Positions 31,140-46,142 of a DNA stretch of 46,142 nucleotides are shown piece by piece. The first letter of the stretch is position 1. Each line of letters starts with the position of its first letter. The stretch is from IMG/VR virus record IMGVR_UViG_3300028585_000034, positions 1 through 46,142 of that record; one strand, given 5' to 3'. The notes beneath the pieces were generated by a model. The model was not told the DNA's origin, made no database searches, and saw nothing but the letters and a program-made list of their open reading frames with translations. The DNA is from a virus. Taxonomy: Duplodnaviria; Caudoviricetes. The position numbers and the translations under genes are program-made.

Positions 31140-31290
31140 GATTCTGGGGTAGCACATATGGAGCACAAAAAAATACCGCAAATCAGCTTAAACCAACTCA
31201 AGTGCTGGAATCTGCCTTGCGGTATAACTCTGTGAAAGCTTAAAGCAACTCACATCAACCTAACTCATTGAATGTAAAGCTCGGTATCAT
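31140..31290. other. Probable attR / integrase arm-site region
   Basis: Short direct repeats (agcaca x2, aactca x3) in AT-rich DNA at the composition boundary; the core cannot be defined without attL. Confidence 0.45.
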
Positions 31291-31990: not shown

Positions 31991-32025
31991 CAAAAGCGCA
32001 TAAAAAAAGGCCGCTTGCGCGACCT
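31991..32025. repeat. 35-bp direct repeat, left copy (contains a minus-strand terminator)
   Basis: caaaagcgcataaaaaaaggccgcttgcgcgacct; one mismatch to 39495-39529. Confidence 0.85.
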
Positions 32026-32057
32026 GTCTGTGTTTGTTCCACCACGGCGACTCAACA

Positions 32058-32159
32058 TCACCCGACCCATTGGCGACGAATTGTCAGGGTGGTGCGGGCT
32101 GTCAATGTAGTCAATCCCACTGCGACTGATAATACTGACATTATCAGGGTAATCAGCAT
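32058..32159 (-). CDS. Small hydrophobic peptide (33 aa)
   Basis: AAGGAGGT RBS; MLITLIMSVLSVAVGLTTLTARTTLTIRRQWVG. Confidence 0.6.
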   Translation of the reverse strand: MLITLIMSVLSVAVGLTTLTARTTLTIRRQWVG

Positions 32160-32296
32160 CAGCTCACCTCCTTACAAAGAGATCGTTATTTTGCCTGCCT
32201 GCCTGCATCCGCGCCTCATCACCATTTAACTTTATCGTCGACGCTCATCTTTAAGATGTCTGGTAGCGCTATGGCGTAGCCTGTCCCTTTCATCGC

Positions 32297-32458
32297 CTAT
32301 CTCGCGGTTACTGCTTTGGTCGGCTTAGCGTGCCCAACGTTATAAAGCGTCGTGATGCTTCCACCGCCATACAGGCCACCTGTTGCAGCAAGGATACTGC
32401 GCTCATTTTCCCTACGTGCATGGCGACGCGCCCGGCAACGTTGTCTTGCATTCATCAT
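32297..32458 (-). CDS. N-like antitermination protein (53 aa)
   Basis: Arginine-rich MNARQRCRARRHARR N-terminus and LY..GH.K....VTAR C-terminus as in lambdoid N proteins; located left of the repressor. Confidence 0.8.
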   Translation of the reverse strand: MMNARQRCRARRHARRENERSILAATGGLYGGGSITTLYNVGHAKPTKAVTAR

Positions 32459-32503
32459 GACCTCTCTTTGTCCGGTACAGAACGTTATAACCACAAGCGG
32501 TAA

Positions 32504-32565
32504 CTGGATTTTTTATCCAGCGGTCGCCCGGCATAAGGTATCAATAACGTTGAGTGTTAAAGCGC
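32504..32565 (-). promoter_or_regulatory. nutL-like site
   Basis: boxA-like GCGCTTTAACA then hairpin CTGGAT-AAAAA-ATCCAG upstream of the N-like gene. Confidence 0.55.
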
Positions 32566-32608
32566 ATTGGCTTTGTGACGGTTAATGCTGCCTGTTAGCG
32601 GGATAAAT

Positions 32609-32670
32609 AATACCTTTTGGTATTGATTTCGGCAAAGAGTATTGGCTGCTAATCAATAGCTAAACGCATA
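32609..32670. promoter_or_regulatory. OL-like operators
   Basis: AATAC-cttttg-GTATT (32609) and AATAG-ctaaac-GCATA (32655), same consensus as OR. Confidence 0.65.
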
Positions 32671-32808
32671 AATGCTTGCCATGAAAAGAAAAATATTTTC
32701 GACAGGAGGAGGAGATTGCGCGGAAAAGTATCGATTGAAATGGATTGATGCGAATAATTAACGTCACTGCCTTGTAATTTCTTCATTCTGTGGCACAGTA
32801 TTAAAACA

Positions 32809-32824
32809 CTGTATATAAAAACAG
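32809..32824. promoter_or_regulatory. LexA (SOS) box
   Basis: CTGTATATAAAAACAG, near-consensus. Confidence 0.85.
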
Positions 32825-32953
32825 TTTACTGGATTATCGTGAGATAACCCATTGATTAATCTCGTCACGAAACGGAGGAGTTGTGGCTATAGCGTTGCTG
32901 AGAACAGGAAAAGGAGGATATGTTGAATACGTCCCGCCGGCACGGGACGAGCG

Positions 32954-33574
32954 CTATTTTCTACGTTTTAAATCGCGAAGAAGAAAAACAGCAACGCCGA
33001 TGAGTTCGGCAGAGGATGAGATATCCAGCAAGGGAACGCGTGGATCATCTACTGCAAGAAATCCAGATTCTCCGCCATCCAAAAAGCGATAAATTGAATA
33101 TGATGAATTGACTTTCGCATAGACCAGATCGCCATTCCCGGGCTTTTCACCGGTATCGATAACCACGATGGTTCCCGCTGGTGCTTCTGCGCATCCGCTG
33201 TTTCTTGGCAGGACGTAAGCCCTGCAGTCGTTGCTCTTAACAACGTCAGGAACATACACTTCTTGTCCAGTCCTGCCATCCTGATCCCAGATGTTGACAG
33301 AAAATACGCCGCCTGGCTGCATGCTGTTTGCTGGAGGATGTGGGTAACTCATCTTTCCGCCAGCGTCCATTTCCCCAACGCCATTTGCAAGCCAGTCAAT
33401 ATTGACTGACAAAGCATTAGCGATATCCACCAGCTTGGTTGAGCCCTTCGCCTGTCCGTTCGCAAGTCGCCAGATAGTAGGTTGAGCAACGCCAGACGCT
33501 TTAGCTAAAGCACCCTGAGAGAAATTACGCGCAGTCATGGCCTGCGTGAGCCGTTCAGCAAGAGTTGTTTTCAT
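32954..33574 (-). CDS. CI-like repressor (HTH + degenerate S24 domain)
   Basis: LAERL...SQGALAKASGVAQPTIWRL HTH; C-domain lacks recognisable AG, GDSM and KRL motifs. Confidence 0.9.
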   Translation of the reverse strand: MKTTLAERLTQAMTARNFSQGALAKASGVAQPTIWRLANGQAKGSTKLVDIANALSVNIDWLANGVGEMDAGGKMSYPHPPANSMQPGGVFSVNIWDQDGRTGQEVYVPDVVKSNDCRAYVLPRNSGCAEAPAGTIVVIDTGEKPGNGDLVYAKVNSSYSIYRFLDGGESGFLAVDDPRVPLLDISSSAELIGVAVFLLRDLKRRK

Positions 33575-33585
33575 GAGAGGCAATT

Positions 33586-33679
33586 TATAGCCGTGCGTAT
33601 TGCACGTCAATTGCAAAAAGGTATTGCATCAAATAATACTTATTGCTATTGTTTGTGGCATGCAATACGAATGTGAATA
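33586..33679 (+). promoter_or_regulatory. OR operators and pR
   Basis: AATA(C/G)-N6-(G/C)TATT-like sites at 33586, 33610, 33635, 33664; TTGCAT-17-TATTGT at 33624-33652. Confidence 0.7.
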
Positions 33680-33882
33680 ATTGATGGCGGCCAGACTATT
33701 TATAAAGTCGCCATCCTTACAGGGAGCCGGTAAAGCGCCTGTTCCTGCACAGGGTGATGCATCCCACTAAGTAGTGCGAGTTACACGGTGGTGGAATGGA
33801 TGCTTTTAACATTTTTGTGAACGTTAAAGCACAAGCGTGTCTTCCGGATTAGGCAGGCCGCCTGTAGCAAGTTAAGCACGAC

Positions 33883-33926
33883 CGCTCTTTATCAATTTGA
33901 ACCCTCACCCTATGCCGAGAAGGCGT
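33883..33926 (+). promoter_or_regulatory. nutR site
   Basis: boxA CGCTCTTTA; boxB ATGCC-GAGAA-GGCGT. Confidence 0.75.
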
Positions 33927-34447
33927 CTGGTGAAAAATTACGTGACCTGCTCACCGCACTGCCACACCGGTTAAATACGGGTTAAGGCGTTGTCGGCTAC
34001 AGGACGCGAAAAAAAGCAACGAGGTCGAAAGCAGCGGGTTTAACCGAATCGTTGTAGCAGGCCCTGACAAAAGTGCCGCTGCTGCTGTCGACAATGCGTA
34101 GATCTCTCGCTGAAAACGCGACTGCTATAAACATCCCTATGTTGCTGGCGTTTAAAGCAGTATGAGCGAATCACTCGCTGTCGAAATACACAGCCGATAA
34201 CGTCGTGAAGAGATGTATGTATTACCTGTCTCTGCTGACGAAGCTCTCTAACAGAATTCAGGGGGCAACATTTTCTCTGCAGGGGCAGGCAATAGCAGGG
34301 GTATTTAGTCGCCACAGCATCATTTTGCTGTGAAAGTCATACCGGAATGAGAACGGGTATCTCTGGCACCAGGTTGAAGCATACCTCACGCCTGAACGCT
34401 CATCCCGGTGCGCTGTTTATTTGACTCCTGCACGTTAATCACTTTTT

Positions 34448-34474
34448 AAAGGCCGCCATCAGAGCGGCCTTTTT
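34448..34474 (+). terminator. Terminator upstream of the lysis genes
   Basis: aaaggccgc-catcaga-gcggccttttt. Confidence 0.75.
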
Positions 34475-34575
34475 GCGTTTCACGCCACTCGATATTTCTC
34501 AATATACGCCTGCCAGCGAAGTGACGTGCTTTCTTTCCAACCATCAACAGCACCGACCGTCGTCATGGAGGTGAT

Positions 34576-34818
34576 ATGAGTATTGATATGAGCAAACTGG
34601 CATCAGGCGCTGCTTATGGCGCATCTGCCGGGACGATCGCCAACGGGCTTTTGACCTGCTTAAGTCCCGATGAATGGAGTGCTGTAGGCGTGCTGGCCGG
34701 TATTGTGGTGGCGCTTATTACGCTCGGGATCAACTGGTATTACAAACGCAAGGCCACGCTGGCGCAGATCAAGGCGCTTCAATGCTGGCCCATCGCATCA
34801 CATATTACAGAGGACTAA
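34576..34818 (+). CDS. Class II pinholin (phage 21 S-like)
   Basis: MSIDMSKLASGAAYGASAG...W...G....T..INWYYKRK; dual Met start; GGAGGT RBS. Confidence 0.9.
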   Translation: MSIDMSKLASGAAYGASAGTIANGLLTCLSPDEWSAVGVLAGIVVALITLGINWYYKRKATLAQIKALQCWPIASHITED

Positions 34819-34821
34819 CCC

Positions 34822-35334
34822 ATGGCTATGTCAAACAGCCTGCGCAATAAGCTAATGACTGCTGCGGGCAGCGGCGCCATGTTTATCGCTATGGCGTTCC
34901 TTGGCGGAAAGGAGGGGGTGGAAGGGCGACAGTATACGCCCTATCAGGATGTGGCTGGTGTCTGGACGGTCTGTGACGGGCACACCGGCAGCGATATCGT
35001 TCAAAGTAAGCAGTACACCGATCGTGAATGCAATCATCTGTTATCGGTTGACCTGCAGCCGGTCAAAAAGACGGTCGACAGCATGGTAAAAATCCCGCTG
35101 GGCGAATATCAGCGCGCCGCGCTCTACAGCTTCACCTATAACGTCGGCACCCGCGCATTTTCTACATCAACGCTGCTAAAACAGCTGAATGCCGGTGATG
35201 TGAAGGGTGCCTGTCAGGCGCTTCGTCACTGGGTTTATGCAGGCGGCCAGAAGTGGCGTGGATTGATGAATCGCCGCGATATGGAGCGGTCAATGTGCCT
35301 GGCGGAGAATGCTGATGAGCTGGCTGGCAAATAA
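34822..35334 (+). CDS. SAR endolysin (GH24 lysozyme)
   Basis: Ala/Gly-rich N-terminal anchor; EG....YQDVAGVWTVCDGHT; GL.NRR.ME. Confidence 0.93.
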   Translation: MAMSNSLRNKLMTAAGSGAMFIAMAFLGGKEGVEGRQYTPYQDVAGVWTVCDGHTGSDIVQSKQYTDRECNHLLSVDLQPVKKTVDSMVKIPLGEYQRAALYSFTYNVGTRAFSTSTLLKQLNAGDVKGACQALRHWVYAGGQKWRGLMNRRDMERSMCLAENADELAGK

Positions 35335-35716
35335 CTGGCGTTCGGTATTGTGGTTCTTGCTGGTGGCGGCTGTGGTGACGTTTGGCACCGCTGCCAGCCA
35401 CTATCACGCCAGGATGTTGCAGGCACAGGAAAAGGTATCGGCGGCACTACAGGCCCGGAAAAAGGCAGAGTCGATCGCCAGTAACCTTATCACTGCCGTG
35501 ACGCTCTTCAACGATATCGGAAAGGCGGCCCACGATGCTCGGTATCAAAACGAGACAGAAAGTGAGAGGCGTATTGTTTACATCAGGCAGTCAATTCAAC
35601 GCGATGCGTGCGCTGCTCATCCTGTTCCCGCTGATGTTGCTGACAGCCTGCGCAAACACAACGAAAGAATACGTTCAGCTTCCGGCAGTGCCCATTCCGG
35701 CAGAACTGCTGGCTGA
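35309..35716 (+). CDS. Rz-like i-spanin
   Basis: N-terminal TM, coiled coil, overlaps the endolysin end. Confidence 0.8.
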   Translation: MLMSWLANNWRSVLWFLLVAAVVTFGTAASHYHARMLQAQEKVSAALQARKKAESIASNLITAVTLFNDIGKAAHDARYQNETESERRIVYIRQSIQRDACAAHPVPADVADSLRKHNERIRSASGSAHSGRTAG

Positions 35717-35849
35717 CTGTGAAATACCTCCCGTACCAGAATCGGTGACCTATGGCGACGTTCTCGAAATGAATGAAAAGCTTATGACATCGATTGAAAA
35801 CTGTAACCGGGATAAACGAGCCATAAAAGAAATTGAATCCCTCAGGTAA
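35604..35849 (+). CDS. Rz1-like o-spanin lipoprotein
   Basis: MRALLILFPLMLLTAC lipobox, Pro-rich, CNRDK; overlaps Rz in another frame. Confidence 0.85.
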   Translation: MRALLILFPLMLLTACANTTKEYVQLPAVPIPAELLADCEIPPVPESVTYGDVLEMNEKLMTSIENCNRDKRAIKEIESLR

Positions 35850-35954
35850 TTTATAAATTAATAGCTAACTGCATTTTAAAGATTATTTATTTTAAAGAAT
35901 AAATAAACATCCCCCCATGAGCAAAATGCTCAATAAACCATGAAAGGAAATACC

Positions 35955-37775
35955 ATGATCGAAGTAAATTCATTTGCTGAACTCCGTACCACCAAGCCTT
36001 CTGCATCAGGCGAAATCGCATTTCTTAAACGTTATTACGACAAGGATTCAACTTTTAATGGCGGCGGCCGCTTCGCAGGTTTTATTGACACCAAGGGGAA
36101 AGCGCCTGCGGATGACAATGGCACCATTGCGGTATCTTCTGCCGGAGATTATTACTGGCAACGTATTATTGATGATGTTTCTACTATCAATATTTTCCAT
36201 TTTGGCGGTAAGCGCTTACGTGGTTCGGCTTCATTTGATGCAGATAACGGCACGGTTAACCACGACGCCTGCATTAACATGTATCGCTGGGCCAAAAGCT
36301 TTGTATCACCGATCGATGATGCGTCCAAAAGCCCTATCCGTGATATCGGTATTCGTTTTCCAGCCGGTAAGTTCATCATTAACCCTGTTGATTTAACCGG
36401 TGAGGGTGAACTACCATTTTTCAATATGTATGGCGATGACTGCGAATATGGCGTTGCGCCCAGAACAATTATTACCTCTGATAAGTCTGCTAATACAGTA
36501 TTCAAGGTTAAAGCGCGACGTACGGCTATTCGCGGTATTTTCTGGGATGGTCAGGCGACCGCCGATACCACTGCAAATACCGGCGCAATTACCTCTGCCA
36601 TGGTAAGTAATCAGCAGCCATTTTTTCAAAACATCACGATCGAAGGGCAGTATATTAATGTCACCTGTTTTCGCGCAGAAAACACCGGTAACTCCGTGTT
36701 CAAGTTTATTGATACGCTTGATACACGACTGGATCAGATCTACTCCAAAAATACCTATAGTCGGGTATTTGACATCACCTGGTCAGATTCAACTCAGGGT
36801 AACTGGGACCATTCCACGGCCGTGGAGTTAACCAACTCCAACTTCCAGTATGGTTATGGTGAAGCCACGCTATTTATGCCGCGCGTGGGCCAGGGGCTGA
36901 TTCGTAATGTGTGGATTGAGCACACGCGATTCCCTGGCGATCTAAGTAATGGTCAGTGGATCATTGATGCGCTGAGCATTGAATCTTCCGTTAACCCCTT
37001 AAAGCTCAATTATTCACGCGTACTAATGCGCCAGCTGAGCTTGCAGTCTGGTGCCAGCATTGATACCGAGCGCACCGGTTCTGCACTGCTCTCAAATTAC
37101 GAACATGGCTGGCGTCGTGATGAGAACTATGGCACTCAGATGACCGGTTCTATGAAGGCTGGCTGGTACTCGGGCTATCGCGTCACCAATACAAGTACTG
37201 AAGATAAATGGTTCCGTCTGGGCAAGTTCTTTTTCCCTCGTGCTAATCAGCACTGGCATATTGAAATGCTGGGTAAAGCACTCCGTGATACCACCACACC
37301 GTCTGGCACTGCGCCCTTACTGGCCAATGTCTGCGGTAAAACACTGCTTAACATTTACCGTGGGGAGAGTTCTGTCGGCGGAAACCTGCATTATGAAGGT
37401 GATTCCGGTGTGATTGACTGCATTGTTCGCACCAGTGACGACAAAGGAAAATATGGTGAAGTCTGGATCAAGCTTAAAGCACAGTGTGGTGATGTGGTAA
37501 TCAACCTTACCACTGATGGCCCATCGCGCTTCGAGGCCGGTGAATGCTCTCTGTTCACTGTTGATTTGTCTGAAGTAACCGATCTGAAAATAGCTGACCG
37601 TGTGGCTCTGTCAACCGTGATGAATTATCACAATGGCGCAGCTGGCGTTGGTTTTGACGGCAAGGTCGTTACGCTGGCTTCGGAAGTGACTTCGGCACCT
37701 GCTGCCTCCGCGACACCAGCGGGGTATATCACCGTTAAGATCAATGGCGTTAACCGCAAGCTCGCGTATTTCTAA
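35955..37775 (+). CDS. AmsF/WceF-like tailspike-fold protein, putative EPS depolymerase
   Basis: SFAELRTT.P...GGG.F...W.R...NI.HFG N-terminus and FPAGKF beta-helix entry; no signal peptide. Confidence 0.7.
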   Translation: MIEVNSFAELRTTKPSASGEIAFLKRYYDKDSTFNGGGRFAGFIDTKGKAPADDNGTIAVSSAGDYYWQRIIDDVSTINIFHFGGKRLRGSASFDADNGTVNHDACINMYRWAKSFVSPIDDASKSPIRDIGIRFPAGKFIINPVDLTGEGELPFFNMYGDDCEYGVAPRTIITSDKSANTVFKVKARRTAIRGIFWDGQATADTTANTGAITSAMVSNQQPFFQNITIEGQYINVTCFRAENTGNSVFKFIDTLDTRLDQIYSKNTYSRVFDITWSDSTQGNWDHSTAVELTNSNFQYGYGEATLFMPRVGQGLIRNVWIEHTRFPGDLSNGQWIIDALSIESSVNPLKLNYSRVLMRQLSLQSGASIDTERTGSALLSNYEHGWRRDENYGTQMTGSMKAGWYSGYRVTNTSTEDKWFRLGKFFFPRANQHWHIEMLGKALRDTTTPSGTAPLLANVCGKTLLNIYRGESSVGGNLHYEGDSGVIDCIVRTSDDKGKYGEVWIKLKAQCGDVVINLTTDGPSRFEAGECSLFTVDLSEVTDLKIADRVALSTVMNYHNGAAGVGFDGKVVTLASEVTSAPAASATPAGYITVKINGVNRKLAYF

Positions 37776-37992
37776 TCACTTCAAACAGCGTTTATCCCAA
37801 GGCGCACTCTTCGGAGTGCGTTTAAATATAAACGTCTTCGGCAATTATCCGTTCTGTGATTTTTTGAAAATAGTAAAGCCAGGGTGAATGACTGACAGTC
37901 ACTCCCTGGCTATACGTTTATTTTTTGCGTGTATGAAAAATAAACTGCGTGATGTTAATGCGTTTTTTGGCTGAGTTATAAAAGGAAAATTT

Positions 37993-38805
37993 ATGTCTGA
38001 TATGATTGTTATTTCTCCTCCTGTGGTTACTACGGGCGACAGTAGTGTGATGTATCCCGGTGGTAATGGCGGCGGCGCAGCAGCAGGCGGCCCGCCACCC
38101 AATGTAAGATATGCGACAGAATTGCATGGTGGGAGTTATTACCGCAACGCCACACCCGTTATAGCGAAAGATTTAAAAGGTAATTTATCTGAGGAAAAGA
38201 AATTAGAGAATGCGATGTGGTGGTTTAAGAACTGTGTATTCATTAATATGTGCGAGCTCGCAGCAAGCCCTGTTGCAGAATTGGCTAGTCGATTTGATAC
38301 GCGCGAGCGAATTAATTTCTCCCCTGATAATGGTCCGCCTCAGTTAAGCAACTCTCCTTATGCAATTGCAGCTGCGCTAAGCAATTTTTTATGGGGTAAT
38401 GGCAGAACAATGAGTGTGGATATCGGTGCACTTTCATTGCAATTTATTCAGGCAGGTAACATCCCTGGTTTCAATGAACGAATGAATGCAATCGGCAACC
38501 CGGGACGTCATAATCTGACATTTTCGTTCCCTTATAACACAGCCAGCTCTAATGTGTTTATGCCTTATATTCTGGGCAATATTACGCTGCAACTTGATGG
38601 TACTTTTACCCGTAATGCTACCGGAACCTGGTCTTTTGATGGCGTGGTCAGAGCTCAGGCGCCAGATTTATATGATTTCAACGCCAGTACGCACCGAAGT
38701 AAAACTAACGAAGACTTGACCACCATCGGTCGATGGATGGGCGAGCGCTTCAACGGTGTGCCTTATAAGATAGAAATTAATGGTGAAACCGCTGTTAAGT
38801 TCTAA
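37993..38805 (+). CDS. Colicin M-like lipid II-degrading bacteriocin
   Basis: LGNITL..DGT and DLYDFNASTHR...E.LT match the ColM catalytic region; TonB-box-like DMIVIS and Gly/Pro-rich N-terminus. Confidence 0.92.
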   Translation: MSDMIVISPPVVTTGDSSVMYPGGNGGGAAAGGPPPNVRYATELHGGSYYRNATPVIAKDLKGNLSEEKKLENAMWWFKNCVFINMCELAASPVAELASRFDTRERINFSPDNGPPQLSNSPYAIAAALSNFLWGNGRTMSVDIGALSLQFIQAGNIPGFNERMNAIGNPGRHNLTFSFPYNTASSNVFMPYILGNITLQLDGTFTRNATGTWSFDGVVRAQAPDLYDFNASTHRSKTNEDLTTIGRWMGERFNGVPYKIEINGETAVKF

Positions 38806-38853
38806 AAGGTAAACGAGTAAGATTTTCATCTTGTTGCCTGAAGGAGGAGTCAT

Positions 38854-39237
38854 ATGAAAGGCGTAGTAAAATTTTTAGTTATGACCGCCATAGCGTCAGG
38901 CGTGCTTGCTTTAGCTGCGCTGATCGTTCTGATTATCTGGAGCAGACCTTCAAAGATCGAAGCTTCCGACGTTGAAGCATGTCGCCATTATGATAATCAG
39001 GCAATCATGTCAAAGGTTATCAGGGCTAAATCGGGTGACAGGTCTCCGTGGAAAAGCTTCTCTGATGCTCAGGATGTCGCTGAGAAAAGTGGAATGCTTA
39101 TCGACCCCGATCAGATATCATTTGGTAATGATATTTGGCTGGTTCCTTTCACTCAGCGCACAGGCCAGTCGGTGACCGAGGCGTACTTCGGCATGCTGGA
39201 CTGTACAACCGATAATGTTGAATTTAGTAAAAAGTGA
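38854..39237 (+). CDS. Colicin M immunity protein (Cmi/YebF family)
   Basis: N-terminal TM anchor, two Cys, W.VPF...Y...LDC....VEF; adjacent to the toxin gene. Confidence 0.85.
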   Translation: MKGVVKFLVMTAIASGVLALAALIVLIIWSRPSKIEASDVEACRHYDNQAIMSKVIRAKSGDRSPWKSFSDAQDVAEKSGMLIDPDQISFGNDIWLVPFTQRTGQSVTEAYFGMLDCTTDNVEFSKK

Positions 39238-39260
39238 CGCCAACCCTCATTGGTAAGACG

Positions 39261-39299
39261 GTATCACAAGGCGCATTCCTGGAGTGCGCCTGATGATAT
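39261..39299 (+). repeat. CA/GA internal-loop hairpin (copy 3)
   Basis: gtatca-CA-aggcgcattc-ctg-gagtgcgcct-GA-tgatat. Confidence 0.8.
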
Positions 39300-39494
39300 T
39301 AGCTGCCATAACACGCCTCCCGTTAACGGTTAGCTACGCTGACCCCTCTCTGCATTAAAACGATGCGCTTATTCTCTTCAGTTATCTGCGAAACAGTGTC
39401 TTCTTCGTTATCCGGGGTGAAAGTTCAGGCTGGTCCAGCTTGCCTTGCTGCACGCTAAAATGCCCGGCAGCGGCGGTTGTTGTTATCACCGGCG

Positions 39495-39529
39495 CAAAAG
39501 CGCATAAAAAAAGGCCGCTTACGCGACCT
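39495..39529. repeat. 35-bp direct repeat, right copy (terminator of the 39550 gene)
   Basis: caaaagcgcataaaaaaaggccgcttacgcgacct. Confidence 0.85.
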
Positions 39530-40377: not shown

Positions 40378-40567
40378 TGGCCGATAGTCCGTTTTCCCTT
40401 CATTAAATGTCGCTTTTACCTCGGCGGGCCTTGCCGGACCCGCCGCATTATTCTTGCTCTACCCCCCTCAGTTAACCTTCGTCACACCTCTGCACTGGCT
40501 GGCCAGCCGCATGCGATCGTCTTTCTGTGAAACAGGCGTCACAAAAAAAGGGCGCGCTTCGCTTAAA

Positions 40568-40585
40568 ATTTAAGTAAACTTAAAT
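40568..40585. promoter_or_regulatory. P22 c2-type operator
   Basis: ATTTAAG-TAAA-CTTAAAT. Confidence 0.75.
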
Positions 40586-40612
40586 TTCAGAGTGATTTTT
40601 CAGGAGTGTAAT

Positions 40613-40909
40613 ATGGCGAGTTTTAACATTTCGATTGAACTGCGTGGGGAAGACGATGCGGCAGCTGACTATCGACGGCTGCGCAGCAAAATGAGCGAGC
40701 ACGGTTTCAGGCACAGCGTCTCGGATAAAACCGGCACGCATTTTCGTCTGCCGCGTGATGAATATACCTGGTCAGGGTATGCCACGCGCCACGAGGTGCT
40801 GGATAAAGTCTATCTGATTCTGGTGGAGTTTATTCCCGATCCCGGTGTGATGGTCACCGAAGCTGCCGGACGGGCGTGGCGCGGGCTGAAAGAAATCGAT
40901 CTCTCGTGA
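40613..40909 (+). CDS. GhoS/DUF2622-like protein
   Basis: F.I.IEL....DY..L..KM...GF...G..F.LP..EY...VMVTE..GR.W.GL; AGGAG RBS. Confidence 0.75.
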   Translation: MASFNISIELRGEDDAAADYRRLRSKMSEHGFRHSVSDKTGTHFRLPRDEYTWSGYATRHEVLDKVYLILVEFIPDPGVMVTEAAGRAWRGLKEIDLS

Positions 40910-41145
40910 CGGTTATCACGGCTGCCGCCTGGCAGCCTGCTGTCATCGCCGGCGTCAGCCGATCGTTTTTTCTGGCGTATCCTCGCCAAAAAAGGGACGG
41001 CTTGCCGGGCACGCTGCCGTTTCGGCTGCTATCTTTAACCGGCAGCGAATCCCCCTGAGCGGCGGGGCGCAGAGTCGATACCTGCCTGAGAGCGCAAACA
41101 AACTTGACCTGGTTTGTTTACCGGGAGGCACCCGGCGCTGCAACT

Positions 41146-41814
41146 TCAGTCACGCTCTTTATCCGCGTCGTCGGCACCGTAATAGAGCTGGCCTAATTTA
41201 ATTAAGGGCCTGCCCTGCGATTTACGATGCAGGTTAGTGTCGCGCAGCGAGTAAACACAGCCACAATATTCCTGCTGATAGAACTGCTCGCGCTTGCTGA
41301 TCTCAATCATGCGCGACGATCCGCCCTGTTTCCGCCAGTTATAGTCCCAGTAAGTCAGGCCATAGCCCGCGGCGGCGCGATGCCCACAGTCGTTGATCTG
41401 CTTCATATCTTTCCAGCGCGAAATGCCCAGTGAGCTGCTGATCACGTTGAAGCCGTGTTCCGCGCCGTACAGCGCAGTGCGCTCGAAGCGCATATCAAAA
41501 CACATGGTGCAGCGCGGACCGCGTTCCGGTTCCCACTCCATGCCTTTGGCACGTTCAAACCAGTTATCGGTATCGTAATCGGCGTCGACGAAGGGCACGT
41601 TGTGCTTTTCGGCAAAACGAATATTTTCTTCTTTGCGGAGAAGATATTCCTTTTGCGGATGGATATTAGGGTTATAGAAAAAGATGGTGTACTCGATGCC
41701 AGAAGCCTGAATGGCTTCCATCACTTCTCCTGAGCAGGGCGCGCAGCAGGAGTGCAGCAGCAGTTTTTTTTCACCGGCGGGCAAGGTAAGAAGAGGGCGT
41801 TCAAATTCCTGCAT
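41146..41814 (-). CDS. queH: Epoxyqueuosine reductase QueH
   Basis: [25 protein letters not shown] and YQQEYCGC motifs. Confidence 0.95.
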
Positions 41815-41925
41815 GGGATATCCACAAATCGATTAACGGTTAGCGCGCACCATAACAAGAATGGCGGCGAGGGTTAACCGCTAATGTGGTTCTGCTACGG
41901 TAAACAGCCTGCTAACGGTCGATTA

Positions 41926-42180
41926 TCAGGCATCGCAGAAGCCGGTTTTCTCCAGCAGGCGGCGCGCATAATCGAGCTCTTCGCTCGACGCGCCTTTACT
42001 GGCTTCGCGCATCAGGCAGTCGTCATTGTTTAACATCGGCGGACGACCGTAGCCCGGTTTGTCATACCACTCCAGCGACCAGCGGTTGGTGTGGCGATAA
42101 TGATAAATCGTCAGCCAGCGGCTGCAGTTGGCCGGATAGCCGCTGAGCACCTCAACTTTTTGCTGTGTGAGCGTGCCCAT
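41926..42180 (-). CDS. Hypothetical protein
   Basis: Probable start MGTLTQQK within the 110-aa ORF. Confidence 0.55.
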   Translation of the reverse strand: MGTLTQQKVEVLSGYPANCSRWLTIYHYRHTNRWSLEWYDKPGYGRPPMLNNDDCLMREASKGASSEELDYARRLLEKTGFCDA

Positions 42181-42470
42181 TAATGAGGACAGAAAGCTAA
42201 GAAACTCGGGAACTTTTATCGCGCCGGTGATGGTTATCATAGGGACCTTGCTGGGCAACAGCGCACGCCTCGAAAAAGCGTCGCCTGAAATTCTGAATAT
42301 TGACTATAGCCGCAAGGGGTAATAATTCCCGTTCCTGATGAATAAAAAGTAAAAAAGTTGACCGGGCGCGCGATTTTTACGCGGCGTAAGGCCAAAAAGG
42401 CTGCGTGGTAAAAGAGACGCTCATACCAGATTAATCTGTTTCCTGCGCAAAAGTCCCCCAACTTAACTAA

Positions 42471-42488
42471 ATTAAAGTAAACTTAAAT
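42471..42488. promoter_or_regulatory. P22 c2-type operator
   Basis: ATTAAAG-TAAA-CTTAAAT. Confidence 0.75.
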
Positions 42489-42518
42489 CTCATTTCTCGA
42501 CAGGGTAAGGGGTACCAT

Positions 42519-42809
42519 ATGGCTAGTTATACCATCCGCGTTGAACTACGCGATGCCACGGCAGAGGATTATGAAAACTTGCATGAACGGATGAAACATC
42601 ACGGCTTCCGGCGCAGCCTGATTTGCAAGCAGGGCACCGTTTACTGGTTGCCGCATGAGGAGTATGTCTGCGTCAGTTTTGATACACGACAGGAGATTCT
42701 CGATCGCGCTTTTCAACTGGCCACTGAGGTCAACGTCAATCCGGCAGTGCTGGTCACGGAATCGACCGGCCGCACCTGGCGGGGACTTGAAGCACTGGAC
42801 TGCCTGTAA
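42519..42809 (+). CDS. GhoS/DUF2622-like protein (paralog)
   Basis: MASYTIRVEL...DYENLHERM...GF...G..Y.LP..EY...VLVTE..GR.W.GL. Confidence 0.8.
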   Translation: MASYTIRVELRDATAEDYENLHERMKHHGFRRSLICKQGTVYWLPHEEYVCVSFDTRQEILDRAFQLATEVNVNPAVLVTESTGRTWRGLEALDCL

Positions 42810-42891
42810 AACAGGCACACATTAACCCCACCCGATTACGCGACGCCGCTGGCTAACGTGATCGGGTGGTCTTGCCGCGGAGGCGCACGAA

Positions 42892-42993
42892 CTAACTGGC
42901 ACCAGGCAGGTAAGCGCCGCTGGCGATAAACCAGACCAGCAAACCCACGCCGGCGATAATGATCGCGATGGGAAAAAGCACACCGATACGCAT
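42892..42993 (-). CDS. yoaK: YoaK family small membrane protein
   Basis: MRIGVLFPIAIIIAGVGLLVWFIASGAYLPGAS resembles E. coli YoaK. Confidence 0.75.
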   Translation of the reverse strand: MRIGVLFPIAIIIAGVGLLVWFIASGAYLPGAS

Positions 42994-43260
42994 CTCTGTT
43001 TCCTTGAGGTTGAACTGCGCGCAACTGGCGCAACGGACCGAAATTATAACGGCTATTGCCGCCCGGCAACAGCGCTTGCCTCGCACCCTCCACAACAAAA
43101 AAAGGGCCACACACCTTGCGGCAGTGGCCAAAAAAACTCTCCCATTCGCGCTGCGGCACATGTTTCCGCATAAACGCATTGATGACAGCACGTCATCGCT
43201 GGCGCCACTCACTGAGCAGCGCCAGCGCTGCGGTCCCGGCATCGTCCTGCTAGCAACCAT

Positions 43261-43278
43261 ATTAAAGATAACTTAAAT
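43261..43278. promoter_or_regulatory. P22 c2-type operator (OL position)
   Basis: ATTAAAG-ATAA-CTTAAAT just downstream of the repressor gene. Confidence 0.75.
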
Positions 43279-43335
43279 AAAATTGCAAGCTTATTGCGCG
43301 CTCAATGAAAAAAAGTCAGTGACGGTAATCTGTCG

Positions 43336-43995
43336 CTACGCCTGAGTCGTGGTTTTTTGCCGATAACGACGATGCTCTATCAGCGTGCCTGCCAGGCTCA
43401 CCGGCGTTTGATTAGATCGCAGGGAAGGGTAATCGTCATTCAGCGGCACCAGTTCGAACACCTCTTCACCTTCCACCATGCCGCGCGGCCGGTATTTCGC
43501 AAACAGCGCTTCGCTGCCGGTGGCGGCCACCACAAAATCACCGGGTATCGGCGTGACCGCCGGGTCGATGATGATGGCATCACCGGCTCGAAATTCCGGC
43601 TCCATTGCGTTACCGGTAATGATCAGGGCGAAGGCAGCGCTGGAGAGATCCACATTACTCTGTAGCCAGCTAACCCCTTCAGGCGACTCAAGAAAGGCGG
43701 TGCCGCGCCAGTTAGCGGCCTGTTGATAGCTGATAATCGGCACCGCATGCGCGCGCTCCGTCGGGCTGGTGGGCAGCATAAACAGATCGCCTTCACCATC
43801 AAAAACCCAGGCGGGCGTGCAGCCGAGTGCTGCCGCAACCCGCAGCAGGTTTTCCCCGCGTGGCACGGTTTCATCCTTCTCCCACTGAGAAATCGCGACG
43901 TGTGAAACGCCGACTTTTGCCGCTAACGCTTTCTGCGTGAGCCGGCATTCTTTGCGTCTCGCCCGAATGCGATCGCCGATAGTTTGTCTGTTCAT
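43336..43995 (-). CDS. P22 c2-like repressor with inactivated S24 domain
   Basis: G.RIRARRK...Q.AL...VGVSHVAISQWE..ET.P.GENLL closely follows P22 c2; GNAMEP and QQAA replace GDSM and QAG. Confidence 0.9.
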   Translation of the reverse strand: MNRQTIGDRIRARRKECRLTQKALAAKVGVSHVAISQWEKDETVPRGENLLRVAAALGCTPAWVFDGEGDLFMLPTSPTERAHAVPIISYQQAANWRGTAFLESPEGVSWLQSNVDLSSAAFALIITGNAMEPEFRAGDAIIIDPAVTPIPGDFVVAATGSEALFAKYRPRGMVEGEEVFELVPLNDDYPSLRSNQTPVSLAGTLIEHRRYRQKTTTQA

Positions 43996-44062
43996 AGTTA
44001 AGTAACCTTAAATGAGCTTGACTTAAGTTTTCTTTAGATAAATAATTTAAGTATTCTTTATC
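43996..44062 (+). promoter_or_regulatory. Three OR operators and pR
   Basis: AGTTAAG-TAAC-CTTAAAT, ACTTAAG-TTTT-CTTTAGA, ATTTAAG-TATT-CTTTATC; TTGACT-17-AATAAT. Confidence 0.8.
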
Positions 44063-44108
44063 TTTGGCTGGTGCTAATCAGTCAATTGGTTAACGAAGCT
44101 GAATTACC

Positions 44109-44156
44109 CGCTCTTTCACAACGGACATGATGTCCTATAGCCGCCGAACAGGTGGC
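44109..44156 (+). promoter_or_regulatory. nut site
   Basis: boxA CGCTCTTTCACA; boxB GCCGCC-GAACA-GGTGGC. Confidence 0.75.
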
Positions 44157-44703
44157 AATTCTTTGCAGTGATTTCCTGCATTTATAACGTCAGGCCCCGC
44201 TACGTCCGTCGCGAGGTGCCTGCACTCTCCCTGATACGTTTTTTTCTCACAATTATGCACCCGTGCTGGCGCCTTGCTTTTGGCGCTGCCTGGTGCGCTA
44301 TGGCAGTTCATTAGTGACGTCAGGAGGCATCATGACCACATTTTATTGCATCGCCAGCAGCGCTCGCCGTTGCCCGCTTTGTACTCCGCAGGCGCTTTAC
44401 CTGCCTTATAACCGCACCCGTTTTGGGGCAATACCATGGGCATCAGGATTTCCCTCGCACGCTAAACCACCACGACTTACCCGCACCACCAGACTTTGGC
44501 TGATTGTTAACACGCAGAAGCACAAGCAAATGCATGAGCTTCTGAAATGAGGGCGGGTTGTTGTCAACGCGACCGGCTACCCGAGCGGGAATTGCGTTTC
44601 TTACGACAACCTCATTTGTGGCAGGTTTTAGCGGAAATAACGATGAGCAAATATCCCTTTTTATCCTTGTTAACGTTTTTTAGCCAAGTCGAAGAGGTGT
44701 GGC

Positions 44704-45087
44704 ATGGAAAGTAGTTTGATTACCAGCATCGGCGCACTCCTTCTTGGCGGTAGTGCCGCGGCACTGTTCTGGAAACCCCTGATGGCGGGCTTAGCCACCA
44801 TCATCACCAGCAATCGGGCAGGAGGTGAAATTATTACCAGCTACAAAGAGCAGGTCGTGTGGCTTAAGGAAGCCAACATCGCGCTCAGAAAAGAGAACGA
44901 CGATCTGCGTACGCGTCATGAACAGAACATGCGTTGCATCTCTTCACTCGAAACCGATATGCGCCTGATGAAGAACTCGCTTGGCATCCTGCGCACAATG
45001 ACCGAGGTTGAGCAAAGCGACAAGTTCAGTAAGGAGATCAATCGTTTAATCACCACTTTGGAGACTATCAGCGATGACAACTGTTAA
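44704..45087 (+). CDS. N-terminal TM coiled-coil protein (possibly holin-like)
   Basis: GAGGT RBS; TM segment then heptad-rich region. Confidence 0.7.
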   Translation: MESSLITSIGALLLGGSAAALFWKPLMAGLATIITSNRAGGEIITSYKEQVVWLKEANIALRKENDDLRTRHEQNMRCISSLETDMRLMKNSLGILRTMTEVEQSDKFSKEINRLITTLETISDDNC

Positions 45088-45391
45088 CGACTCAATACGG
45101 CCCCGGAACTTCAGGCGCAACATCATACTCGGCAGTATTCTGCTGATTGCCGCGGTGTTCTGCGTGGTGATGACGGTGATTTTTGCCTACGTCAGTAATC
45201 AGGCAAACCAACAGCTGGACAGTATTCGTAAGGATTATCGTGAAGCGGCTATGCGCCGCGAAGCCAAGGTCGATGCGGTATCTGAACAGGTAAAGCAATT
45301 ACAGCACAAACTGGATGTGCTGCCGAACCGGACGGCGGACATGACGGCAGATAAAGTCAAGTCGGTGGTTAAGGAAGAAAACGCCCGTTAA
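45074..45391 (+). CDS. Single-TM coiled-coil protein
   Basis: Overlaps the upstream gene; IILGSILLIAAVFCVVMTVIFAYV TM. Confidence 0.7.
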   Translation: MTTVNDSIRPRNFRRNIILGSILLIAAVFCVVMTVIFAYVSNQANQQLDSIRKDYREAAMRREAKVDAVSEQVKQLQHKLDVLPNRTADMTADKVKSVVKEENAR

Positions 45392-45522
45392 GCACCTTGG
45401 CAGTGGCGTTTATGTTGTCACTGCCTGTTTTACCCCCCAAGGAATTAGCCATGAATGTTACCCCTTTAATCTGGAGCGCTTTTAACGCGCTGCTTTTCTT
45501 TAAAAAGACGCAGGAGTCTACT

Positions 45523-46142
45523 ATGTCCGATATCAATGCAGTTACCCCAAATACCGCCGCAAACCCTGAGCAAAATCTGGTCGATTCGGCAGCGGTACAA
45601 AGTGCGCAACCCGCCGCGACAGCGGCAGAAACGCCCACTGAGGCCAGCCCACGCGACCCGATGTTTGATGCTCCGCCCGCGCGTACGATTGACGCTGTCG
45701 AAGAGGCGTCAACCGCCGCACCGGCGGCCACCGCGCCAGCCGAAAAAGCTACCGATGCCGCCGATGCCGTCAGCGCCGCACCGCTGGAAGCCACACCAGC
45801 CGCGCCGAAAGCGGTAACCGCTGCGCCAGTAGATGTTGCCGCTGAGCCAGCCGCACCTAATGCTGATGCTGCGCCCGCTGAACCGGCCGATGTCGTCGCA
45901 ACTGCCAGCGCCGCGCCGGAAGCGGTAACCGCTGCGCCGGTCGATGTTGCCGCTGAGCCAGCCGCGTCCAATGCTGATGCTGCGCCCGCTGAACCGGCCG
46001 ATGTCGCCGCAACCACCAGCGCCGCGCCAGAAGCGGTAACCGCTGCGCCAGCCGATGTTGCCGCTGAGCCAGCCGCGCCTAATGCTGATGCTGCGCCCGC
46101 TGAACCGGCCGATGTCGCCGCAACCCCTAGCGCCGCACCCGC
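45523..46142 (+). CDS. Ala/Pro/acidic low-complexity repeat protein (partial, runs off the window)
   Basis: AGGAG then MSDINAVTPNTAANPEQ...; frame open to the window end. Confidence 0.8.
   Translation, partial: MSDINAVTPNTAANPEQNLVDSAAVQSAQPAATAAETPTEASPRDPMFDAPPARTIDAVEEASTAAPAATAPAEKATDAADAVSAAPLEATPAAPKAVTAAPVDVAAEPAAPNADAAPAEPADVVATASAAPEAVTAAPVDVAAEPAASNADAAPAEPADVAATTSAAPEAVTAAPADVAAEPAAPNADAAPAEPADVAATPSAAP
45799..46142 (+). repeat. 111-bp (37-aa) in-frame tandem repeat
   Basis: Units start at 45799, 45910, 46021, 46132 (AAPEAVTAAPVDVAAEPAAPNADAAPAEPADVAATTS). Confidence 0.9.

Follow-up and report, generated by a model that had tools for sequence, protein, structure and literature searches.

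Release of proteins by repressor-gated suicide is already known; in the published examples consulted, control is by a cleavable repressor together with a Q-like factor, or else by host activators. In Pectobacterium (RdgA/RdgB, carotovoricin and pectin lyase) and in the PrtR/PrtN pyocins of Pseudomonas, SOS-linked regulators of phage derivation lead to lytic release of an enzyme or bacteriocin, with a cleavable repressor, an activator and tailocin genes. The alpRABCDE locus of Pseudomonas aeruginosa, as described in PMC9371919, has a self-cleaving phage-type repressor (AlpR), a DNA-damage trigger, and a DNA-binding Q-like antiterminator (AlpA) that passes an intrinsic terminator before the lysis genes. 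Type 10 secretion or lysis cassettes (Yersinia entomophaga YenLC and Serratia chiWXYZ) comprise holin, hydrolase and spanins and release signal-less proteins by subpopulation lysis, under the host-type activators RoeA and ChiR in the account of PMC10847048. Here we describe a block at positions 31991..39529 of a virus record of 46,142 bases (IMGVR_UViG_3300028585_000034; this whole stretch is referred to as the window), in which a lambdoid immunity switch precedes lysis genes and candidate cargo genes for an exopolysaccharide (EPS) depolymerase and a colicin-M-family bacteriocin.

By analogy, the block would work much like the Alp and type 10 lysis cassettes but with a different regulator. It resembles Alp in its phage-type repressor, putative DNA-damage trigger and terminator before the lysis genes; it differs in that its repressor lacks the catalytic Lys, its antiterminator is of the RNA-binding N/nut type and cargo genes lie behind the lysis genes, and the Alp pairing of self-cleaving repressor and Q-like antiterminator is thus not found. 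As in type 10 cassettes, holin, peptidoglycan hydrolase and spanins stand beside signal-less cargo, here judged from the genes, but the block keeps a lambdoid immunity switch, and its cargo genes follow the spanins on the same strand. It has none of the features of RdgA/RdgB and PrtR/PrtN, that is, cleavable repressor, activator or tailocin genes.

For the control region, the comparable systems are the LexA-controlled antirepressors (Gifsy GfoA/GftA/GfhA, 186 Tum and N15 AntC; PMC3121763), in which a non-cleavable repressor is paired with a small LexA-gated gene, and the Bacillus AimX-AimC pair (bioRxiv 10.1101/2025.11.23.689978), in which a small gene overlaps the repressor 3′ end in antisense. 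The corresponding overlap in the block is about 139 nt, against 30 for AimX in that preprint. Unlike in the LexA-antirepressor systems, the S24 domain of the block repressor is complete although inactive; the Gifsy antirepressors, as placed in PMC3121763, lie outside the immunity region whereas the candidate here overlaps cI; and the switch drives a non-replicating module. No description of the module was found in a literature search that mostly did not extend to subscription papers or to supplements, which may list these loci.

Selective pruning of a lambdoid switch

The block is a pruned prophage kept in the chromosome of Duffyella gerundensis, and we consider it probable that it works as a DNA-damage-triggered device for self-lysis and cargo release. 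The features of its switch are given below, compared with the intact prophages L087 and L141, the latter sharing the cI subfamily and N type.

31991..32025, no strand: left copy of a 35-bp direct repeat, terminator-like, an attachment (att)-like junction or a phage tL terminator; 97% identical to 39495-39529
32297..32455, minus: mini-N antiterminator candidate, 52 amino acids, with an Arg-rich motif and the C-terminal motif of full-length N
32515..32572, minus: nutL, decayed, with altered boxA and broken boxB stem; fold z -1.0
32601..32670, minus: OL operators and pL, 69% identical to L141; promoter-like site 32635-32607; repeat D11 common to OR
32809..32824, plus: LexA (SOS) box, 14/16 to the consensus, in front of the antisense gene
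32883..33092, plus: gene for 69 amino acids opposite cI, overlapping its 3′ end; likely antirepressor
32954..33574, minus: cI-type repressor, 206 amino acids, non-cleavable (PF01381, phrog_4)
33575..33683, no strand: OR with pRM and pR, 65% identical to L141; pRM-like site 33610-33582
33684..33875, plus: cro pseudogene; relative to L087 cro it carries deletions and frameshifts, and codons 16, 30 and 63 are in-frame stops
33883..33938, plus: nutR, intact, boxA and a boxB hairpin with GAGAA loop; fold z -3.1
33991..34165, plus: cII pseudogene; against L087 cII, frameshifts and stops at codons 22, 38 and 42

There are several indications of pruning. First, the layout is that of a lambdoid immunity region, with a helix-turn-helix repressor divergent from pR, OL and OR, an N gene that comes first under pL and encodes an Arg-rich motif, and a matching nutR, but an intact nutL, cro, cII and Q are missing. 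Second, identity to L141 is uneven: it is 93% for nutR (52/56), 71% for the LexA region, 69% for N and 64% for cI, against 52% for nutL (32/61 columns), 44% for cro and 37% for cII (Fisher p for nutR 3e-14 versus cro and cII together and 1e-6 versus nutL). Third, stops and frameshifts are confined to cro and cII, which hold many lesions in ~370 nt (exact indel counts depend on the alignment), whereas about 1 kb of cI, N and antisense gene holds none. Fourth, in lambda nutL serves only the genes downstream of N, and these are gone from the block, while nutR serves what lies to its right. These comparisons show that the block was selectively pruned. An 8-nt deletion polymorphism at 34032, in the cII pseudogene, was seen in one run, and the indels listed in RNA runs all lie outside the open reading frames (ORFs) of the block. 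The nutR boxB stem recurs in 7 prophages with varying G-N-N-A-A loops, and no relative was found for the segment 34190-34440.

The preliminary description had proposed an N-like gene, a CI-like repressor, OL and OR and a real nutR, all of which stand, as does the wiring through N and nutR, given that cI, N and nutR survive alongside a decayed cro, cII and nutL and that an independently derived Erwinia-type module has likewise retained nutR and lost nutL. Its intact nutL does not stand, and the ~900 bp that it took to lack any ORF contains the two pseudogenes that it could not recognise.

The N candidate is short, but homologues of 51–53 amino acids exist, and it is thus not a truncation; from these comparisons it is a natural 52-residue N candidate. 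Although it has no Pfam or PHROG hidden Markov model (HMM) match, its C-terminus matches those of full-length N proteins, namely the PF25694 N of L073 and that of L143. Relatives were found at 14 viral loci, one of which is the same block; among the other 13, mini-N is the first pL gene behind the same boxA/boxB in 12, and the remaining one (L143) has a full-length N matched through its C-terminus. Mini-N and the block-type boxB occur together in prophages. Some prophages (L131:8001-8720, L133, L134) carry 2–3 tandem N-like genes of mini-N, lambda and P22 types.

Genome G418 has the block adjoining fliE without the upstream prophage, and the match to the window breaks off at 31,282-31,286 in five loci from five strains; the block therefore belongs to the host chromosome, and that prophage is a strain-specific neighbour. 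Positions 1 to ~31,285 of the window are a separate head-and-tail prophage whose right end falls within the 3′ end of fliE. A block that is merely a piece of this prophage is ruled out by the same five loci, which match the block but end at the junction near 31285. The species name is that on cluster members of the block's proteins. G418 and record G003 carry the block at 97.6-98.3% identity (G418 97.6%), the metagenome loci L081-L086 hold it complete or cut by contig ends, and it sits at the same site in G418, L035 and L085/L086. It was found in all D. gerundensis-like loci fetched, and the identical cI is present on 84 contigs, a number similar to that for the neighbouring cI2 gene (81). The domestication suggested earlier is therefore supported, restriction to one strain is not the case, and it is correct that Q, replication, integrase, capsid and tail genes are absent from the block.

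The 35-bp repeat is not established as an att site: its left copy also resembles, at 83-86%, a terminator that follows N in prophages L135/L136/L139, as well as a third terminator elsewhere in the G418 chromosome. No empty site was found, the right-flank gene occurring in 3/50 genomes, with another context at the one locus inspected; a search for relatives around G418 was uninformative (3/61 hits, with one genome in its genus).

A LexA-gated gene overlapping the repressor

The repressor is, from its residues, unable to cleave itself. Tyr162 occupies the catalytic Lys column in 53/53 aligned homologues, the PF00717 match is below cut-off, and the Ser/Lys dyad of a RecA-cleavable S24 domain is lacking. 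The alignment to the L087 cI is gap-free, with differences by codon position of 0.17/0.10/0.54 and a ratio of nonsynonymous to synonymous rates (dN/dS) of about 0.08. The cI message is likely leaderless, and pR was located by alignment to L087/L073/L141.

The likely trigger is the LexA-gated gene that overlaps the repressor. The preliminary description named no trigger and included neither the LexA box 32809-32824 nor the ORF 32883-33092. A ribosome site lies between the box and the 69-codon ORF, the whole forming the arrangement of non-cleavable repressor and LexA box before a small conserved ORF that is typical of LexA-controlled antirepressors. Conservation was followed in 62 distinct loci with enough flank, which are related to each other, so that counts are not independent events: the start is present in 55/62, the Shine-Dalgarno sequence in 54 and an R-x3-G-x-Y motif in 54. 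That the frame stays open inside cI adds no independent evidence, being dictated by the cI protein sequence, and the non-overlapping part alone was used. Past the cI stop, the frame is free of stops in 56/62 loci (the other frames in 16 and 25), and divergence by codon position is 0.42/0.32/0.62 in 46 sequences, third positions varying most. These patterns show that the gene is conserved as a protein, and it likely encodes an antirepressor.

A complex prediction for the repressor with the 69-residue protein gives weak support (0.36 against 0.00 for the best control), and the gene overlap may inflate this score. The runs agree in at least 64% of contacts, with a partner pLDDT (predicted local distance difference test) of 45-48. 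In calibration 116/157 solved pairs and 2/215 mismatched ones passed the threshold, although the range at or below 0.60 holds just 18 of the solved pairs plus both mismatched ones. The protein has no usable family match in Pfam, PHROG or Atlas; a profile search gave 39 unnamed proteins, and family searches, rather than pairwise comparison, place it outside the Tum, AntC, GfoA and AimX families. Phage vB_YenM_21.09, which PMC9224151 reports as recovered from a mitomycin C-treated culture, has the same cI type, antisense gene and box.

A LexA-like box is present in 23/29 prophage-type and Duffyella loci and in 0/33 modules of the Erwinia, G740 and G540 types. Because of this absence, another trigger must exist in the Erwinia- and G540-type modules. 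A weaker LexA-like site (12/16) lies at 34178-34193, at the end of the cII pseudogene, the place of the oop promoter in lambda.

Lysis genes, cargo and sister modules

The remainder of the block contains the following features.

34448..34480, plus: intrinsic terminator, 96 nt before the holin; fold z -5.0
34576..34818, plus: P21-type pinholin (PF04971, E 3e-20)
34822..35334, plus: endolysin of the signal-arrest-release (SAR) type (PF00959, E 3e-43)
35309..35716, plus: Rz inner spanin (phrog_214, E 8e-29)
35604..35849, plus: Rz1 lipoprotein spanin (PF23793, E 7e-18), lipobox LLTAC
35955..37775, plus: AmsF/WceF-like EPS depolymerase candidate, 606 amino acids, signal-less and headless (phrog_4250, E 9e-165)
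37800..37915, plus: two strong hairpins between amsF and colM (z -4.8 and -4.2)
37993..38805, plus: colicin-M-family (ColM) lipid II-degrading bacteriocin (PF14859, E 8e-33)
38854..39237, plus: immunity candidate, membrane-anchored, two-Cys, distantly YebF/Cmi-like
39495..39529, no strand: right copy of the 35-bp repeat, a bidirectional terminator-like hairpin

The terminator and lysis genes named in the preliminary description are all upheld by these matches. The terminator is 87% like its counterpart in Pantoea phage AH07, where Q precedes it, and the endolysin has, as read from its sequence, a Gly/Ala-rich SAR-like N-terminus and an E-x8-D-x5-T triad. Against prophage counterparts dN/dS is 0.08 for cI, 0.17-0.30 for N, 0.13 for the lysin and 0.07 for the holin, values that include the phage branch and do not date the selection. 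Among strains, the endolysin has 2 nonsynonymous and 0-1 synonymous changes.

The depolymerase candidate is homologous over its whole length to Pantoea stewartii WceF (6tgf; E 3e-79) and to phage EPS depolymerases, with which it shares by sequence the beta-helix body. WceF has a Tat (twin-arginine translocation) signal and a head domain (described in PMC7949094) and belongs to an EPS operon; the block protein lacks both and lies outside such an operon, the first part following because the alignment begins at WceF residue 169. It is 40-45% identical to Erwinia phage depolymerases, which are likewise without Tat signal or head. Two strain alleles of the gene are about 10% apart (dN/dS about 0.27) whereas flanking genes differ by less than 1%; the difference is concentrated around 37190-37600, which suggests recombination or diversifying selection.

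The toxin retains the DxYDx5HR motif in alignment with colicin M, and both it and the signal-less AmsF-like protein had been recognised correctly. A LexA scan found no box before colM. The Cmi-like immunity gene is less certain: a weak YebF/Cmi likeness exists, but the Pfam (E 0.068) and NCBIfam (E 2.5e-4) matches are below cut-off. It is 30% identical to a gene next to an Erwinia-genus ColM and fits the PeiB type of PMC5821083 by that paper's description rather than by PeiB sequences. The same source states that ColM-type bacteriocins need lysis genes from elsewhere.

Recruitment of the cargo de novo is ruled out, since intact prophages that depend on Q carry AmsF-like and ColM-immunity genes directly after their lysis genes, as late-operon morons (L146, L150, L147/L148), at 74-90% identity to the block's families. 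L146 has Q, lysis genes, AmsF (74%) and terminase; L150 has Q, holin, lysin, Rz, ColM (86%), immunity and terminase; and L147/L148 (Q seen in L147) match the block over 3.1 kb, from the holin gene to amsF, with 80% of nucleotides identical. What sets Duffyella apart is therefore that the replication genes and Q were lost, so that lysis and cargo genes came within reach of nutR: L146 and L150 retain Q and virion genes, whereas in the block the lysis genes lie within about 650 nt of nutR.

The same cI subfamily occurs in 19/401 genomes of a family sample, in 29/50 of the G755 genus (Erwinia, inferred from protein names) and in 9/9 of the G540 genus. Three of the 29 Erwinia cases are prophages with cro and 26 are an N-cI-Q-lysozyme-holin-spanin-AmsF module at one site (Q in 26/26, lysozyme in 25, holin in 24, and AmsF in 25, with one contig ending). 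Unlike the Duffyella block, these modules carry a PF06530 Q. Together with G740, they have boxB right of cI in 25/27 and left of it in 0/27, and the Arg-rich N motif in 23/27. In the G540-genus module pR leads directly into lysozyme, holin and a 560-residue cargo of unknown type; neither N nor Q was seen there. All module architectures retain cargo. In quick trees the Duffyella cI clusters with prophage repressors and the Erwinia- and G540-type cIs form a clade of their own; a single origin of the Duffyella and Erwinia switches, imposed as one clade, was rejected (a quick-tree test on a group named after the first tree was seen). These trees show a repeated, independent origin of the same module design.

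Several related loci were seen alongside. At L057:5074-10523, L060, L061 and L117-L122 a genus-wide (9/9) cI drives lysozyme and holin directly, with one or two cargo proteins of 560-600 amino acids without Pfam or PHROG family. A second Duffyella module (L123:3997-8865; G418:C1 about 994.0-998.9 kb) combines a repressor whose catalytic Ser is replaced by Ala with a nut-like site, a terminator and a P22-type N, followed by lysis genes of the Erwinia type (lysozyme, DUF7940-like holin and spanin) and an AmsF paralogue (50%); its lysis genes depend on the N (leftward-type) operon. At L054:13812-14868 a cI-like gene whose catalytic motifs are intact precedes a holin-like gene, with a third AmsF paralogue of 634 amino acids nearby (L054:17553-19457). 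In one Erwinia-genus subgroup (L097, L098, L099, L104, L107, L109) the N-like protein is extended at its C-terminus by a stretch containing two CxxC pairs.

Proposed working and its alternatives

We propose that cI keeps pL and pR off until LexA cleavage in the SOS response frees expression of the 69-residue protein, which would inactivate cI, perhaps helped by the convergent transcript. Mini-N would then be made from pL, load at nutR and take the pR transcript past the pre-holin terminator and probably past the pre-colM hairpins. Lysis would fall under pR, nutR and N because Q and the replication genes are lost and, because cro is dead, there would be no damping and the cell would commit to lysis and let out the signal-less depolymerase and the bacteriocin, which immune siblings would survive. 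Induction by the SOS response through the small protein, read-through by N, subpopulation lysis and the release and activity of the cargo are, on balance, what we expect of this locus. If this is true, N/nut antitermination has been kept for a host purpose, and the module offers a natural minimal N of 52 residues as well as a new family of candidate antirepressors concealed within cI. Half of the Erwinia-genus genomes searched have a conserved module, which could also explain how signal-less EPS depolymerases and colicin-M-type bacteriocins leave plant-associated bacteria.

A number of points weigh against this working. First, pR is supported by homology, but a consensus promoter scan did not report it, and its -10 (TATTGT, against TATTAT in the prophage relatives) is weaker; the OR/pR of the preliminary description thus stands only in part. 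Second, the absence of an HMM match counts against mini-N, and a lambda-type N lies directly behind it in 3/13 viral loci checked, so that it may not act alone. Third, overlap of antisense gene and cI couples the two alignments used in the complex prediction. Fourth, nutR is strongly constrained in prophages too, and the L141 cII is a distant allele. Fifth, strain changes are too few for a post-domestication dN/dS (0-2 in N, antisense gene, cI and holin), and the lysis and cargo genes, in view of their similarity to Q-dependent L147/L148, may postdate the switch, in which case their intactness does not come from the same interval. Finally, the single transcript through the cargo that had been proposed is weakened by RNA-library contigs, which extend over cI, amsF and colM-imm and reach the leader and lysis genes in patches. 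In four studies they end just before amsF, at 35941 (X2), 35912 (X4), 35875 (X6) and 35945 (X10), while a DNA-type run continues through 35,875-35,945. These contigs indicate presence only and may include DNA (depth was not used for ranking, and holes were not taken as silence), and they point weakly to a separate start for amsF. Probably amsF and imm also have weak promoters of their own. By eye, no conserved promoter motif was seen before amsF.

A broader version of the proposal is that Erwiniaceae repeatedly domesticated lambdoid switches into family-wide programmed lysis for biofilm remodelling, with at least two independent origins from one non-cleavable cI lineage with overlapping antirepressor and a third module in Duffyella wired to pL-nut-N. 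For the host, N/nut antitermination would be a checkpoint. In the older Erwinia/G540 clade, in which the LexA box is lost (33/33) and the antirepressor gene kept, a signal of host lifestyle would have replaced DNA damage as the trigger. We put this forward tentatively, as something less likely than its alternatives taken together.

Among the alternatives, the best placed, though unlikely, is that amsF and colM-imm are morons with promoters of their own, released by any lysis, and that cI is kept because its loss would fire the lysis genes, the switch never being used on purpose. The hint of an amsF start, the RNA contigs over amsF-colM-imm, the moron status of both cargos in prophages, the exchange of amsF alleles among strains and the weak-looking pR all agree with it. 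It leaves unexplained, however, why LexA box, antisense gene, N and nutR are retained despite the decay of cro, cII and nutL, and why N and nutR are kept in 23-25/27 Erwinia-type sister loci; plain loss of pR or holin would also end the danger. Somewhat less probable again is a role in phage defence, cI conferring immunity to homoimmune phages and a related antirepressor or N, made by an incoming or co-resident phage, firing lysis early to kill the infected cell, with cargo riding along. Close relatives of cI, antirepressor, mini-N and nut do circulate in intact prophages (L087, L141, L130-L139), and the Erwinia- and G540-type modules, with a LexA box in 0/33, need some other trigger, but the Duffyella copy has its own box and antirepressor candidate, and cargo is retained across all architectures. 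Antirepressor cross-talk between prophages is documented in PMC3121763. A recently grounded prophage in mid-decay and without selected function would account for the broken cro, cII and nutL and for strain polymorphism too low to show purifying selection, but is very improbable given the concentration of lesions in cro and cII with none in cI, N and antisense gene, a nutR so close to that of L141, the presence of the block in all D. gerundensis-like loci fetched and the repeated, independent rise of the design.

Beyond the block, window positions 40566-45391 resemble another domesticated repressor regulon. A second cI-like gene (43336-43995) has Ala at the catalytic Ser, 24-nt operator-like repeats lie at 40566, 42469, 43259 and 43994, two of them preceding paralogous phrog_8894 genes, and two small membrane-type genes follow the cI-like gene (44704-45391). 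An Rfam STnc100 match lies at 41013-41187, and the right end of the window (45369-46142) is an Ala/Pro-rich low-complexity ORF with 111-nt tandem repeats.

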